DNA of 64,000 nucleotides from an uncultured Candidatus Saccharibacteria bacterium (lineage in GTDB: Bacteria > Patescibacteriota > Minisyncoccia > UBA6257 > 2-01-FULL-56-20). The DNA lies in the NCBI GenBank assembly GCA_964456235.1, contig CAYWDX010000001.1:125935-189934 (forward strand). Reading direction: 5' to 3'. The notes beneath the pieces are model-generated. The model saw only the letters and a list, made by a program, of their open reading frames with translations, was not told the DNA's origin and made no database searches. Positions 24,375 to 30,355 of the stretch are shown in pieces; position 1 is the stretch's first letter, and the number at the start of each line of letters is the position of its first letter. The position numbers and the translations under genes are program-made.

Positions 24375-24689
24375 TTAGTGGTAATCAATTATTTCAATAA
24401 TCATGACCTTGCTTATCGACTTTAGATCTTGAGGATCTCCATTTAAATAGGTGATGATTATTCGATACGGATGTTTGATATCTAAAGCATAACATTTTTT
24501 CAGCTTACCCTTTAACGGGTGCAGTCTGATTTGAGGAAGCTTCGATATATCAGACAGACTCTCCGCAGACAATAACTCATTAATCCTCTGGACTATCAAT
24601 TCTGCCTGAAGATGGCCGTATCTCCTCTTTAATAAGGCACCATCTTCGCAGGTTTTCTTGAGTTTTTTGTCTTTAAAGGAGAGTTCCAT
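24375..24689 (-). CDS. higB: HigB-family (RelE/ParE superfamily) mRNA interferase toxin
   Basis: MELSFKDKKLKK...RLHPLKGKLKK...YLNGD...IIDYH matches the HigB pattern (xSFKxKxLKK / LHPLKG / NGD / DYH C-terminus). Confidence 0.8.
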   Translation of the reverse strand: MELSFKDKKLKKTCEDGALLKRRYGHLQAELIVQRINELLSAESLSDISKLPQIRLHPLKGKLKKCYALDIKHPYRIIITYLNGDPQDLKSISKVMIIEIIDYH

Positions 24690-24861: not shown

Positions 24862-25110
24862 TTTTGCAAACGCCAAATAGCCACAAAACAATACAAGCAA
24901 GTTTGGGTCAGTCCAATCGGTGATGATTGGAAAGTGAAAAGCGCCGGGGCTGATCGAGCTGCCGCAATCGTAGACACGAAAGCGGAAGCGGTGGAGCTAG
25001 CACGTGAGATCGCGATCAATAAGAAAGCAGAACTTATTGTTCAAAACGCAGATGGTGAGATTGGGTGGAGGAATTCGTATGGTCACGATTCTTTCCCTCC
25101 TCGGGGATAG
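24862..25110 (+). CDS. DUF2188-like small protein ORF lacking a canonical start codon (possible pseudogene or non-AUG start)
   Basis: Frame translates ...QYKQVWVSPIGDDWKVKSAGADRAAAIVDTKAEAVELAREIAINKKAELIVQNADGEIGWRNSYGHDSFPPRG*, matching the DUF2188 pattern (VWVSP..G.W.VK..G..RA......A.A...AR.IA......EL..QG.DG.I...NSYG.DP.PP); no in-frame ATG/GTG/TTG covers the domain, only an internal GTG that would give 58 aa. Confidence 0.4.
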   Translation, partial: FCKRQIATKQYKQVWVSPIGDDWKVKSAGADRAAAIVDTKAEAVELAREIAINKKAELIVQNADGEIGWRNSYGHDSFPPRG

Positions 25111-26834: not shown

Positions 26835-27038
26835 CTAACCGCGCACGTAGGGCAAGAGTCCCATGAACCGCGCCCGCTTGATCGCTTCAGCCAGTTTTCG
26901 TTGGTGTTTCGCGCAAATGCCGGTATGGCGCGGGTCAATAATCTTCGCCTGGCTCGAAACAAAGCGGCGCAAAAGCTCCACCTCCTTGTAGTCGATGTTC
27001 ATGATATTCTGCGAGCAGAAAAAACACTGTTGGGGCAT
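26835..27038 (-). CDS. rpsR: 30S ribosomal protein bS18
   Basis: [64 protein letters not shown]. Confidence 0.9.
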
Positions 27039-27062: not shown

Positions 27063-27662
27063 TTAGACTTTCTTAACCTGGAGCGAGTCCAGTTCCACGG
27101 CGGTGTCGCGTCCGAAAATCGGAACAAGCACCTTGATGCTTCCCTTTTCCGTATTCACTTCAGCCACTTTGCCGTCGTATTCTTTGAACGGACCGTCGGT
27201 TATTTTTACCAGATCGCCAACTTTGAGGTCAAGCACCATCTTGCCTTCGTCCTTCGTCGAACGCGCGAGGAGCATGTCGACTTCATCTTTTGAAAGAGGC
27301 GTCGGCGTCGTGTTATCGGGGCCGACGAAACCGGTGACGCGCGGCGTGTTGCGCACGACATACCAGGAATCTTCCGTGAGAATCATTTCGACAAGCACAT
27401 AGCCCGGATAAATTTTTTCCTCCACGGTCTGGCGTTTACCGCCCTTCACGCGGATGGTTTTTTCTTTGGGAACCAAAATATTGAAAATTTTGTCGCCCAT
27501 CTCGAGCGATTCGACGCGCTGCTTCAAATAGCGCGCGACGGCCTCTTCATAACCGGAATAGGTCTGCACGGCATACCACTGCCGCATCTTGGGCGATTCG
27601 CTATGGGTTCCCGGGCGTGAAGGTTGCAAGGGCATGGTGATGAGGTGATTAAGAAATGACAA
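27063..27662 (-). CDS. nusG: transcription termination/antitermination factor NusG
   Basis: NGN domain WYAVQTYSGYEE; KOW motif KVGDLVKITDGPFKEYDGKVAEV; the true start may be the internal Met (MRQWYAV). Confidence 0.9.
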   Translation of the reverse strand: MSFLNHLITMPLQPSRPGTHSESPKMRQWYAVQTYSGYEEAVARYLKQRVESLEMGDKIFNILVPKEKTIRVKGGKRQTVEEKIYPGYVLVEMILTEDSWYVVRNTPRVTGFVGPDNTTPTPLSKDEVDMLLARSTKDEGKMVLDLKVGDLVKITDGPFKEYDGKVAEVNTEKGSIKVLVPIFGRDTAVELDSLQVKKV

Positions 27663-27837
27663 ATGATTTTATGATATTCGTGAAAAGATAATCGAAGAGG
27701 CCAAGAAACAGGGCGATGCCGAGCGCCATGATGATCACGATCGAGGTAAGGCGCACCGCTTCCTGGCGCGTCGGCCAGTTCACGTGACGCAACTCCTGGC
27801 GCGATTCTGCAAAAAAGCTTTTGAGTCGGGCGAACAT
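27649..27837 (-). CDS. secE: preprotein translocase subunit SecE
   Basis: 62 aa, single C-terminal TM; canonical secE-nusG order. Confidence 0.8.
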   Translation of the reverse strand: MFARLKSFFAESRQELRHVNWPTRQEAVRLTSIVIIMALGIALFLGLFDYLFTNIIKSFVIS

Positions 27838-27945
27838 TTTTTATTTTTACGATATATTGATTGCGCGCCGCACGCGGTTCGATGCGCCGAGCGCTACCCC
27901 CGAATTAAAATACCGCTATACTCGCGGCATTGGGAGGATGGCACC

Positions 27946-27974
27946 AGTATAGCCCTCGGGATGCCCCTCGTCAA
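27946..27974 (-). promoter_or_regulatory. candidate sigma70 promoter for secE-nusG (TTGACG-17-TATACT)
   Basis: Minus-strand ttgacg (27969-27974) and tatact (27946-27951) with a 17-nt spacer, ~100 nt upstream of secE. Confidence 0.45.
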
Positions 27975-28111
27975 CACGGCCGTGCCTGTGGATCCGGCGG
28001 GACTTGCACCCGCTTCCCCGGTCTGGCGAGAACGGGATCCTACTCCATAAACGACGGACCCATCCACAGGCGGAACGATGCTAACACATGCGCGATTAAA
28101 AAATGCTTAAA

Positions 28112-28142
28112 GAAAACAAAAACGGCCGCAGAGGCAGCCGTT
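28112..28142 (-). terminator. rho-independent terminator ~120 nt downstream of gyrB
   Basis: Minus strand AACGGCTGCCTCTGCGGCCGTT stem-loop followed by TTTTTGTTTTC. Confidence 0.55.
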
Positions 28143-28190
28143 AGCGCGCCAGACCGTGTATCCATCGTTTCCAACGGACCCCGTTCCTTG
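28112..28190 (-). ncRNA. candidate ~80-nt small RNA (promoter-to-terminator unit) in the gyrB-secE spacer; identity unknown
   Basis: Minus-strand TTGACA (28218-28223), 16-nt spacer, TATGCT (28196-28201), then ~80 nt ending at the terminator above; no ORF; no match by eye to SRP, tmRNA or RNase P motifs. Confidence 0.25.
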
Positions 28191-28258
28191 GCTCCAGCAT
28201 AACGCTAGAGCAAGAGATGTCAAGTAAGATTTTAATAACTTTTTAATGAAGGCAGTTC

Positions 28259-30355
28259 TTATGCCTGCAAATCCAAGTTCTGCACGGTCGCCGCGTGCGC
28301 CTGGATGAAATTCTTGCGCGGCTCCACGGCATCGCCCATCAAAATGTCGAAAAGCTTGTCAGCTTTTTCAGCGTCGTCGATCGTCACCTGTTTCATTAAG
28401 CGATTTTCCGGATTCATCGTCGTTTCCCAAAGCTGGTCGGCATTCATTTCGCCGAGACCCTTGTAGCGCTGCACATTCGGCGTGCGTTTTGCATCGCCGC
28501 TTTCAGCCACTTCCAAACCCTCTTCGGCGGCATCCCCAGCAGTGCGAGTAACCCCGGTCTCCGCAGCTTTCGCACCTGCTTTTTTAACACCGGCCTTCGC
28601 CGCAGGCGCAGCTTTTTGCAATTCCGCGATCACTTTTGTTTTTTCAGCATCAGAAAACGCGTAACGGAACGCTTTACCAAGTTGGACGCGATAGAGTGGC
28701 GGCTGCGCGATATACAAAAACCCTCCCTCGACTACCGCTTTGAAATAACGGTAGAAAAGCGTAAGGAGGAGCGTCCGGATGTGCGCGCCGTCCACGTCAG
28801 CATCGGTCATGATGATAATTTTGTGGTAGCGCAACTTTTCCATATTAAATTCCTCGCCGATCGCCGTGCCGATGGCGACGACAAGCGCGCGGACCTCGGC
28901 GTTCGCGAGCATCTTGTCAAGGCGCGCACGTTCTACGTTCAGAATTTTTCCGCGCAAAGGCAGGATCGCTTGCGTGTGGCGATTGCGCCCCTGCTTTGCG
29001 GTACCTCCCGCCGAGTCGCCCTCTACTATAAATAACTCTGAATCGGCGGCACTCTTCGAAATGCAGTCGGCGAGCTTGCCCGGCAGCGTGAGCCCTTCGA
29101 ACGCGCCCTTGCGGAGCACGGTCTCGCGCGCCGCGCGCGCCGCCATGCGCGCCCGTGCCGTCAACATGACTTTTGCGAGAATCCCCTTCGCTTCTTGCGG
29201 ATGTTTTTCCAAAAATTCCTTGAGCGCCTCGTTCATCACGGCTTCAACGGCGGTGCGGGCTTCAGGATTGCCGAGCTTGGCTTTCGTTTGCCCCTCAAAC
29301 TGCGGCTCGCGCAATTTTATAGAAACGATAGCGACGAGGCCTTCGCGCATGTCATCGCTCGTCAGATTTTCGTCTTTCTCTTTGAGATATCCTTCGCCGC
29401 GCGCGTAATTGTTGAGCGATCGGGTGAGCGCGGAACGAAAACCGGTCAGGTGCATGCCGCCGTCGGGCGTGTAAATATTATTCGCAAAGCTCATCTCCTG
29501 CACTTTCGTGTCATCGACATAGAGGAACGCGACCTCGACGCCGATTTTTTCCTGGTCCTTATCTATATAAAAAACATCTTCATGGAGCCGATTTTTTTTC
29601 TCGGCCAGGAATTTTACGAACGAAAGCAATCCACCTTCAAAATAGAAGCCGTGGAATACGGGCACCGCCCCGCGGCGATCGAACACGTTGATGCGCACTC
29701 CCTTTGTGAGATAGGCCTGCTGTCGCAGGTGATCGAGTATCGTCTTCTCGTTAAATTCGAGTTCGGAAAAAATTTGCTGGTCCGGCGAGAACGTGACGCG
29801 CGTGCCATGCCGCTTCGATGCGCCGACCTTCTTTACCTTATATTTCGGTTTGCCGCGCTCATATTCCTGCACGAACATCCCCCCGTCGCGCTCGACTTCG
29901 ACTTTGAGCCACTCTGAAAGCGCGTTCACGACCGACACGCCGACGCCATGCAAGCCGCCGGAAACTTTATATGATTCGCCGCCGAATTTTCCGCCAGCGT
30001 GGAGCGTGGTGAGCACCGTTTCGAGCGCTGACTTTTTTGTTTGTGCATGCGTTTCAACCGGAATGCCGCGGCCGTCGTCGACAACGCTCACGCGGTTTTT
30101 CGGCAAAAGTTCGATCGTTATATTCTTCGCGTAGCTGGCCATCGCCTCGTCGATCGAGTTGTCGACGACTTCCCAGATCAGGTGGTGCAATCCAAGCGAG
30201 CCGGTCGAACCGATGTACATGCCCGGCCGCTTGCGGACCGGCTCAAGGCCTTCGAGAACATAGATATCCTTCGCGCTGTAGGAGGCGCTGCCCTTCGTAT
30301 CGTTTTTCTCTTCCTTTTTCGATTTAGGCGCGGTTTTTGTTGCTTTTTCGGGCAT
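28259..30355 (-). CDS. gyrB: DNA gyrase subunit B
   Basis: GHKL ATPase N-terminus (YSAKDIYVLEGLEPVRKRPGMYIGST...LHHLIWEVVDNSIDEAM), Toprim EGDSAGG, Ala/Lys-rich insert near the C-terminus. Confidence 0.95.
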   Translation of the reverse strand: MPEKATKTAPKSKKEEKNDTKGSASYSAKDIYVLEGLEPVRKRPGMYIGSTGSLGLHHLIWEVVDNSIDEAMASYAKNITIELLPKNRVSVVDDGRGIPVETHAQTKKSALETVLTTLHAGGKFGGESYKVSGGLHGVGVSVVNALSEWLKVEVERDGGMFVQEYERGKPKYKVKKVGASKRHGTRVTFSPDQQIFSELEFNEKTILDHLRQQAYLTKGVRINVFDRRGAVPVFHGFYFEGGLLSFVKFLAEKKNRLHEDVFYIDKDQEKIGVEVAFLYVDDTKVQEMSFANNIYTPDGGMHLTGFRSALTRSLNNYARGEGYLKEKDENLTSDDMREGLVAIVSIKLREPQFEGQTKAKLGNPEARTAVEAVMNEALKEFLEKHPQEAKGILAKVMLTARARMAARAARETVLRKGAFEGLTLPGKLADCISKSAADSELFIVEGDSAGGTAKQGRNRHTQAILPLRGKILNVERARLDKMLANAEVRALVVAIGTAIGEEFNMEKLRYHKIIIMTDADVDGAHIRTLLLTLFYRYFKAVVEGGFLYIAQPPLYRVQLGKAFRYAFSDAEKTKVIAELQKAAPAAKAGVKKAGAKAAETGVTRTAGDAAEEGLEVAESGDAKRTPNVQRYKGLGEMNADQLWETTMNPENRLMKQVTIDDAEKADKLFDILMGDAVEPRKNFIQAHAATVQNLDLQA

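Follow-up and report, generated by a model that had tools for sequence, protein, structure and literature searches.

Antisense RNA pairs include CopA/CopT of plasmid R1, RNA I/RNA II of ColE1 and Sok/hok, a type I toxin-antitoxin system. In the type VIII toxin-antitoxin system CreT/CreA, CreT sequesters a rare tRNA and CreA needs Cascade. A tRNA scaffold can also be used outside protein synthesis, as in the non-proteinogenic staphylococcal tRNA-Gly, which lacks the standard T-loop sequence. The Patescibacteria, also termed the Candidate Phyla Radiation (CPR), hold a large share of bacterial diversity, and few of their non-coding RNAs have been characterized. The present analysis concerns a stretch of 64,000 nucleotides (nt) from an uncultured Candidatus Saccharibacteria bacterium (contig CAYWDX010000001.1), hereafter the window, and specifically the spacer between its gyrB and secE genes. 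This spacer probably represents an inserted, self-contained module of two non-coding RNA genes that point in the same direction as gyrB and secE, in which an antisense RNA, here called small RNA 1 (sRNA1), captures an alanine-type tRNA mimic, here called the tRNA-like RNA.

Two RNA genes predicted in the gyrB-secE spacer

The spacer occupies positions 27838-28258 (421 nt), and both flanking genes lie on the minus strand (Table 1). A previous sequence-only reading had singled it out as an unusually long non-coding interval of ~420 nt in a genome of otherwise short spacers, and both points stand. The median intergenic gap in the window is ~25 nt by a crude map of open reading frames (ORFs), the remaining large gaps being small proteins or tRNAs, and the four ORFs of the spacer (88, 90, 57 and 44 amino acids) have no significant Pfam match, the best E value of 0.13 falling under the cut-off. 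The possibility of a gene for a small ribosomal protein (rpmG, for example), known from other bacteria, was rejected, as six-frame translation and Pfam showed none.

A consensus scan of the minus strand recovers the three signals that the same reading had listed, namely a TTGACA-16-TATGCT promoter, a GC-rich hairpin followed by a U run, and a TTGACG-17-TATACT promoter near secE. The first of these promoters, which matches 10 of 12 consensus positions, and the hairpin, here terminator T1, bound sRNA1; its 5' end is placed 7 nt past the -10 hexamer and its 3' end within the U run. No further terminator lies between the gyrB stop and T1, and T1 probably ends gyrB transcripts too. The predicted fold of sRNA1 consists of a helix between its 5' arm and a downstream segment X, a hairpin P2 and the terminator. 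In this fold the 5' arm occupies the 5' half of X, and P2 closes on itself with the help of G:U pairs, so that the 3' half of X stays single-stranded. The free half is complementary to the anticodon loop of the tRNA-like RNA and is likely, in the folding model, to be the seed for pairing. The ten tRNA-like nucleotides that face X comprise the anticodon, C37, A38 and the 3' strand of the anticodon stem.

The gene for the tRNA-like RNA follows on the same strand, behind a -10-like element for which no good -35 was found, and is framed by a leader and a trailer that pair with each other. These two strands account for an inverted repeat that had been noted before. The repeat exists, with 10 base pairs (bp; GCCTGTGGAT/ATCCACAGGC), and a repeat search places its arms on the leader and the trailer, enclosing 68 nt, rather than at 28031-28083 with an enclosure of ~35 nt. 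Likewise, the "large stem" proposed there is a stem, not as a free-standing hairpin but as the leader/trailer helix of the tRNA-like RNA. Another inverted repeat, of 14 nt with 11/14 complementary, connects the P2/X region of sRNA1 (28156-28169) with the -10/leader region (28074-28087) and may be due to chance.

As an observation, the sequence-only reading is thereby partly confirmed, being real apart from the repeat coordinates. Its interpretation is partly supported: a novel small RNA bounded by promoter and terminator is borne out, and an Rfam scan, which had been proposed as a check, gives no family for sRNA1 and only a partial match to transfer-messenger RNA (tmRNA). The comparison across related spacers, likewise proposed, finds the element conserved with covariation, and the small-RNA reading passes. 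What it overlooked is the tRNA-like partner, and with it the co-evolving pair of mimic and antisense RNA.

Table 1. Features of the gyrB-secE spacer and its flanks, in window coordinates; tRNA-like positions follow tRNA numbering
Feature	Position	Strand	Details	Basis
gyrB	28259-30355	minus		NCBIfam
sRNA1 promoter	28196..28223	minus	-35 TTGACA 28218-28223, 16-nt spacer, -10 TATGCT 28196-28201	consensus scan
sRNA1	28111..28189	minus	~79 nt	promoter and terminator bounds
sRNA1 5' arm	28178..28187	minus	GGAACGGGGU; complements tRNA-like positions 24-33 (28029-28038)	
sRNA1 hairpin P2	28160..28179	minus	GUCCGUUGGAAACGAUGGAU; loop and 3' strand 28160-28174 complement tRNA-like positions 3-17 (28045-28059)	
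sRNA1 segment X	28147..28156	minus	CGGUCUGGCG; perfect complement of tRNA-like positions 34-43 (28019-28028)	
Intrinsic terminator T1	28111..28142	minus	9-bp stem 28121-28142, then U run (TTTGTTTTCT)	consensus scan
Extended -10-like element	28078..28086	minus	TGtTAGCAT; inferred promoter of the tRNA-like gene	
Leader strand	28062..28071	minus	GCCUGUGGAU; pairs with trailer 27984-27993, 10/10	repeat search
tRNA-like RNA	28061..27989	minus	G1 to A73, 73 nt	tmRNA model, model R1, cloverleaf and 18-55 covariation
Trailer strand	27984..27993	minus	AUCCACAGGC; overlaps positions 69-73, pairs with leader	
secE-nusG promoter	27974..27946	minus	TTGACG-17-TATACT; module neighbour, outside the module	consensus scan
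secE 5' untranslated region (5'UTR) hairpin	27913-27927, U run to ~27903	minus	CCGCGAGUAUAGCGG, then UAUUUUAAUU; separate cis element, module neighbour	
secE	27649-27837	minus		NCBIfam

An insertion with a wider family

With one genome per species, a NusG-based scan yielded 57 loci, and the labels of nearly all of them read Patescibacteria, Paceibacterota or similar; gyrB-secE synteny is widespread among them. The spacers range from ~30 nt to 1.8 kb, with ORFs that differ by species (L001-L046). Those of the closest relatives (L001, L005, L008 and L020) are ~90-120 nt long and lack the module; in such short-spacer relatives the secE -35 reaches into the end of gyrB or adjoins it, and only the last ~100 nt of the window spacer are shared, comprising the secE promoter and the 5'UTR hairpin. 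Four other species (L009, L010, L014 and L015) share with the window the promoter, the ~80-nt RNA with its terminator, the -10-like box and the tRNA-like element. Since four species share it and the closest relatives have short spacers without it, the module is an insertion in part of the clade. An exact-protein look-up for presence or absence at strain level returned only identical copies. The identical locus is also present in the samples SRR12313479 and SRR12313480.

The gyrB-secE junction is, in addition, an insertion hot spot in the clade, with further examples in L006 (1607-2814), L009 (1050-2816) and L032 (1729-2806). HNH-endonuclease-like ORFs with CxxC motifs occur in L014 (2008-2331, minus) and L004 (1738-2154, minus).

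Metagenome contigs were scanned with a pattern drawn from the T arm and the 3' strand of the acceptor only, and the hits were archaeal tRNA-Ala genes, the 3' ends of tmRNAs and, on 16 contigs, 20 copies of the element. Leaving out L114, which repeats L084, and L111, which has no partner, 18 new modules on 14 contigs (31-57% GC) were retained. The family analysed below accordingly consists of 23 modules, namely the window, the four Patescibacteria species and the 18 metagenome modules. Members were collected by NusG synteny or by the 3'-part pattern, so that complementarity to a partner was not selected for. An upstream complement of at least 9 nt accompanies 23 of 25 hits, and in 22 of them it measures 10-16 nt; a 24th hit, L165, pairs over 12-15 bp with one G:U. 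As a negative control, 106 matches of the same pattern in viral contigs (tmRNA ends or tRNAs) contained only two with a complement, each of 9 nt.

The genomic contexts of the 18 metagenome modules are unrelated to secE, no conserved neighbouring protein gene was found among the module contexts, and no association with phages or plasmids was found. Two contigs bear a pair of modules with differing pairing sequences, separated by ~0.7 kb in L157 and by ~1.85 kb in L117. In one of these contigs (L117, 192-266), a tRNA-like gene of ~65 nt is without much of the D arm and has kept a matched sRNA1, with a 13-bp X helix and a 9-bp arm helix.

The architecture of sRNA1 is conserved throughout the 23 modules, in the order 5' arm, P2, short linker, X, A-rich linker and intrinsic terminator. 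A promoter with a -35-like hexamer 16-18 nt upstream of TAnnnT lies at the same relative place in 22 of 23 modules by script; the -35 is TTGACA in most, and the usual form is TTGACA-16-TATAAT or TATACT. T1 follows a strict hairpin-plus-U-run rule in 20/23 modules, and in the other three the folds contain hairpins with a mismatch. For the tRNA-like gene, a TAnnnT box is found 14-20 nt before the core start in 20/23 modules (21 with any match), and it reads TATAAT in 10 of the 15 broad-clade modules, where the gene also has a terminator of its own.

One locus departs from this arrangement. In L013, the tRNA-like gene runs against the direction of secE. Its product, a tRNA-like RNA with G3:U70, A73 and an 8-bp anticodon helix (2545-2616), is followed ~60 nt downstream, on the same strand, by one contiguous antisense of 18 nt (2467-2484), which adjoins an apparent terminator hairpin, seen by eye and possibly serving gyrB too.

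Cognate pairing between sRNA1 and the tRNA-like RNA

Read in permuted blocks, sRNA1 is antisense to the first two-thirds of the tRNA-like RNA; in the window the blocks cover positions 3-17, 24-33 and 34-43, and all three are intact, as is the leader helix. The repeat search finds the arm and X blocks independently (28176-28186/28030-28040, 10/11; 28147-28156/28019-28028, 10/10). In the family, helix X ranges from 10 to 17 bp (median 12), is invariably located at positions 34-46 and takes 23 distinct sequences in 23 modules. The arm helix, at positions ~23-33, reaches at least 8 bp in 18/23 modules, and the middle block, formed by the P2 region with positions from ~1/3 to 13/19, has 10-19 paired nucleotides against 7.8 ± 1.5 in shuffles, in 23/23 modules. 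Altogether, a median of 36 nucleotides per module is paired. A strict helix between P2 and the acceptor strand was rejected on account of recurrent A:C mismatches at C4, and this pairing is kept only within the looser middle block.

The partners change together. X covaries with the anticodon region, as when CGGUCUGGCG faces CGCCAGACCG in the window and UUCGUUUGCUC faces GAGCAAACGAA in L014. The duplex energy is -36.3 kcal/mol for cognate pairs versus -16.3 ± 5.1 for non-cognate ones, and the cognate partner ranks best in 23/23 rows. The helices are, furthermore, longer when G:U pairs are allowed (31.4) than when the mirror-image A:C pairs are allowed (24.9) or Watson-Crick pairs only (22.5), a bias seen in 19/23 modules. 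This tolerance of G:U over A:C implies that the constraint acts on RNA made from the minus strand and not on DNA.

An alanine-type tRNA mimic

The tRNA-like RNA of the window scores 87 bits with model R1. Its acceptor stem, GGGUCCG/CGGAUCC, includes G3:U70 and is followed by A73, and the remainder has U8, A14, U33, a 5-nt variable loop, a GCGGG/CCCGC T stem, the T loop UGCAAGU and the anticodon loop CUCGCCA (anticodon CGC, C37). A permissive Rfam search aligned 28061..27986 to both ends of the tmRNA model, with only the acceptor stem and the T arm covered (20.4 bits, E 3e-6), so that the earlier failure to match a tmRNA tRNA-like end by eye does not hold up. The genomic letters past A73 are CAG in the window and CNN elsewhere.

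Across 22 sequences, 92.4% of cells in the cloverleaf are paired, compared with 35-58% when the strands are slid by 1-3 columns; cells in which both partners have changed number 70 against 26 ± 5 in shuffles, counts that are inflated by shared ancestry. Positions 18 and 55 covary in 21/21 sequences, either as G55 with A or C18 (15 cases) or as U55 or C55 with G18 (6 cases), and this exceptionless covariation of T loop and D loop indicates a genuine tRNA elbow. A tRNA-Val of the same genome (9095-9168, minus) carries C55 in its T loop (GGUCCGAUCC), the same unusual base as in the tRNA-like RNAs of L010 and L014.

Sequence conservation is confined to the acceptor stem, the T arm and A73-C74, and the D arm and anticodon arm vary. 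Specifically, G3:U70 is present in 21/22 sequences and A73 in 22/22, and pairs 4-69 and 6-67 vary. The "anticodon" takes nine values across the family, and even the syntenic orthologues read CGC, UGC, UAA, GAG and UAA; alanine anticodons (CGC or UGC) occur in four members, the window copy among them. A purine is never found at position 37, where 18 of the 22 sequences have C and the other 4 have U, and the anticodon loop often has 9 nt. The conserved alanine identity set, together with the drifting "anticodon", suggests that the acceptor half is the functional end.

Seven of nine members scanned pass the threshold of the Rfam tRNA family RF00005, with 32-45 bits, and ARAGORN calls a tRNA in three orthologues of the window clade, with anticodons that disagree (Ala, Leu and Leu). 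As at least seven pass Rfam and three are called by ARAGORN, some members have probably been annotated as ordinary Pro, Ser, Leu, Val or Ala tRNAs. A tRNA-Trp gene lies upstream of secE in other phyla; this identity was rejected here, the identity marks being those of alanine and the anticodon variable. A promoter within the anticodon loop, given that some loops resemble TTGACA, was also rejected, there being no -10 downstream.

The leader could allow a second fold. The leader helix has 8-11 bp in 20/23 modules, and one of its positions is U-A, C-G or G-C depending on the species. In the window clade, the leader pairs mostly with the trailer, at positions 69/71-79. In the other members, it pairs with positions 66/67-75, in what would be an alternative helix with A3-U70, and excludes the acceptor stem. 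In most metagenome members (L066, L084, L117, L119 and others) the leader (GGAUCYG) duplicates the 5' strand of the acceptor, and this copy can form a perfect alternative helix of 7-10 bp with the 3' strand, A3-U70 replacing G3:U70. The alternative helix may act as a switch between a chargeable and a non-chargeable form.

A model for capture of the mimic

Most likely, the single-stranded 3' half of X would seed on the anticodon loop, and pairing of X would then invade the anticodon stem; alternatively, the D arm and the acceptor 5' strand would be captured. The freed acceptor 3' strand could in turn pair with the leader. sRNA1 would thus keep the mimic from taking on, or retaining, the L shape that it needs for processing, alanine charging or ribosome entry, and the duplex may, in addition, mark the mimic for a duplex-specific RNase. 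The free mimic would most likely be a substrate of alanyl-tRNA synthetase (AlaRS) that does not decode normally, given that position 37 is C or U and the loop often has 9 nt.

Weighing the evidence

At the level of sequence comparison, the architecture, the cloverleaf with its tertiary covariation, three co-varying intermolecular helices, cognate specificity and pairing in RNA can be regarded as established. Several points weigh against the reading of the spacer as a tRNA mimic with its antisense RNA, most of them concerning the window itself. The window copy is the least tRNA-like member of the family: its D stem consists almost wholly of wobble pairs, ARAGORN calls no tRNA in the spacer, no RF00005 match is obtained at the gathering score, minimum free energy folding gives no cloverleaf, and single-sequence folding is marginal, with z about -1.9 to -2.1. 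The net association energy of the window pair is -4.4 kcal/mol versus -1.3 ± 1.3 for shuffles. By simple geometry, one sRNA1 should be unable to form all three helices simultaneously. To these are added the shared ancestry behind the covariation counts and the lack of a terminator after the tRNA-like gene in the window clade, and a single read-through transcript could still cover both parts.

Among the other explanations, the one that survives best is a specific version of the same module, namely an RNA-only toxin-antitoxin or addiction module, possibly acting by abortive infection. It is a tentative proposal that we regard as rather unlikely, and more probable than the remaining ones. The free mimic would do harm, for instance by decoding with alanine in a way that causes frameshifts or mistranslation, or by tying up AlaRS, EF-Tu or RNase P; a strongly expressed sRNA1 would serve as antidote, and the hypervariable three-helix interface would keep co-resident copies orthogonal. 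The patchy distribution fits such a module, which is inserted in some species and missing from relatives, sits at unrelated genomic sites elsewhere with no conserved neighbour protein, and occurs twice on one contig (L157, L117) with different pairing sequences. So do the all-distinct pairs with mutually best cognates, and the consensus promoter on sRNA1 as opposed to a -10 only on the tRNA-like gene. Non-purine bases at position 37 and 9-nt anticodon loops favour frameshifting, and the family has no purine at 37 and commonly has 9-nt loops. Against this, the alanine anticodons of four members including the window would make simple mistranslation harmless, no phage or plasmid link was found, and no known RNA toxin acts by such a mechanism.

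The mimic might instead be a working non-ribosomal alanine carrier or a true tRNA isoacceptor, for instance in cell-wall or lipid aminoacylation, with sRNA1 as a housekeeping regulator. This is improbable. Conservation of the AlaRS identity set while the anticodon drifts is what a carrier would predict, the tRNA scores of most scanned members point the same way, and the T loop/D loop variant UGCAA with A18 recalls staphylococcal tRNA-Gly. A housekeeping pair would, however, have no need for 23 pairing sequences and tandem orthogonal copies, and the module is missing at the locus in close relatives. Furthermore, no Fem- or MprF-type gene recurs beside the module, and C37 or U37 is not known from decoding tRNAs.

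We consider it more doubtful still that the spacer encodes one long structured RNA or a cis leader of secE-nusG, in which the "terminator" would be internal and the complementarity intramolecular. The two parts are adjacent on the same strand, the missing terminator after the tRNA-like part in the window clade could allow read-on into secE, and the arm and middle blocks would nest in cis. T1, however, is canonical in 20/23 modules and is followed by a -10 hexamer, and the broad-clade tRNA-like gene ends in a terminator of its own. The sequence-only reading had also offered a secE-nusG leader. This does not agree with relatives that lack the module and have the same secE promoter and UTR, with metagenome modules in contexts unrelated to secE, or with the opposite orientation in L013.

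A diverged housekeeping RNA, such as a two-piece tmRNA, the signal recognition particle (SRP) RNA or RNase P RNA, is very improbable. The acceptor and T arm fit the tmRNA model, G3:U70 occurs in tmRNA too, and two base-paired RNAs recall a two-piece tmRNA. sRNA1, however, holds no tag frame, its terminator stems co-varying as helices and differing in length by non-multiples of three; there are no pseudoknots, the cloverleaf is complete rather than split, and the module is multi-copy and patchy. The suggestion of a housekeeping RNA, made before, is accordingly not upheld: in the spacer scan with permissive filters, SRP, RNase P and 6S RNA have no Rfam match even at E<=10, and tmRNA matches only at its tRNA-like end, scoring 20.4 bits where 47 are required, with 28 nt standing in for 312 model positions and no conserved frame in sRNA1. 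At the gathering threshold, Rfam finds only ordinary tRNAs elsewhere in the window and 20 loci, and none in the spacer. The permissive hits to Plastid-ycf2, RAGATH-21 and twister-sister were set aside as chance matches driven by the T arm, and so was an SRP motif in sRNA1 (AGCCAAGG), which has no GNRA loop context and no Rfam match.

Least probable of all is a decaying tRNA-Ala pseudogene beside a gyrB 3'UTR with terminator, the complementarity being an old inverted duplication or DNA repeat: the poor tRNA score of the window copy, T1 as the sole terminator after gyrB and the resemblance of sRNA1 to an antisense copy would suit such an origin, against which stand three helices that have stayed matched while their sequences took 23 different forms, with every sRNA1 pairing best with the adjacent partner, a bias for G:U over A:C that is unexpected for a relic, and a consensus promoter that has been kept.

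Neighbouring features

The secE-nusG promoter, which is kept in relatives both with and without the module, is followed by a 5'UTR hairpin that BLAST finds conserved in 12 related loci. In distant loci (L018, L019), another hairpin with a U run (GCAGC/GCUGC or GGCGAAU/AUUCGC) takes its place. From its sequence, the hairpin looks like a leader attenuator for secE-nusG. NusA-stimulated termination autoregulates nusA in B. subtilis (review PMC12288461), and by analogy one might guess at a NusG counterpart at the secE hairpin.

Past secE, the gene order continues with nusG, rpsR and two undecaprenyl-diphosphate phosphatase genes. The nusG ORF is listed as 199 amino acids with a TTG start and probably has 190. 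The rpsR gene (S18; Pfam PF01084) comes after nusG at 26835-27038 (minus) in the window and at 1435-1638 in L284; it is followed by a PAP2-type phosphatase and BacA/UppP, and the usual rplK-rplA order is not seen there. The 722-nt gap downstream of uppP contains a HigB-like toxin gene (PF05015) and a small ORF (24375-24689, minus; 24934-25110, plus).

Implications

The pair is undescribed in the full-text literature searched, a body that leaves most subscription journals outside its coverage, and neither sRNA1 nor the pair has an Rfam family. The module is a compact, RNA-only system of two short predicted transcripts with strong promoters, whose specificity code can be read from sequence in 23 matched pairs. 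Should the mimic accept alanine, the module would exemplify a novel means of gating tRNA-like molecules; should the free mimic be harmful, the reduced genomes of Patescibacteria would contain a new type of toxin-antitoxin system. Whichever applies, the orthogonal pairs are a possible natural set of RNA-RNA parts.

Comparison with known systems

The T-box riboswitch resembles the module in that an RNA pairs with a tRNA anticodon and the pairing element lies just upstream of a terminator. sRNA1, in contrast, has no Stem I platform, T-box sequence or antiterminator; it pairs over 10-17 nt and two further blocks, and its partner is a dedicated mimic and not a cellular tRNA. There is no Rfam match to a T-box, and no alternative pairing of the terminator 5' strand was seen by eye, short of a systematic scan.

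With tRNA-Ala and the tRNA-like domain of tmRNA (RF00005, RF00023), the tRNA-like RNA shares a 7-bp acceptor with G3:U70, A73, a GC-rich T stem of 5 bp and the contact between D loop and T loop, and its 3' 25 nt are nearly identical to many tmRNA 3' ends. It differs from both in its unconserved "anticodon", in C or U at position 37, in an anticodon loop that often has 9 nt, in the T loop UGCAA with A or C18 and in a leader that repeats the acceptor 5' strand; it lacks an mRNA-like domain, and each copy has a dedicated antisense RNA. As a tRNA, the element thus shows cloverleaf covariation, and lacks detection of the window copy, a purine at 37 and a conserved anticodon. As a predicted alanine acceptor, it has G3:U70 and A73. 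As a tmRNA, it has the tRNA-like end, and no tag frame, pseudoknots or sufficient score.

CreT/CreA is similar in that both partners are RNA and the translation apparatus is the likely target. Here, unlike there, the presumed and putatively toxic effector mimics a tRNA and would be neutralized by direct pairing, with no associated protein gene.

A further parallel is that of antisense-regulated pairs, as the module comprises adjacent genes with extensive and specific complementarity. CopA/CopT, RNA I/RNA II and Sok/hok differ from it in their targets, which are an mRNA or a replication primer and not a non-coding tRNA mimic, and in that sRNA1 is encoded in trans, from the same strand, as a block-permuted sequence and not as a mirror transcript. 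What these systems have in common with the module is a small, strongly expressed and structured RNA, a single-stranded seed that meets the loop of a target hairpin, pairing that spreads into the stem, and a pair specificity that evolves fast.

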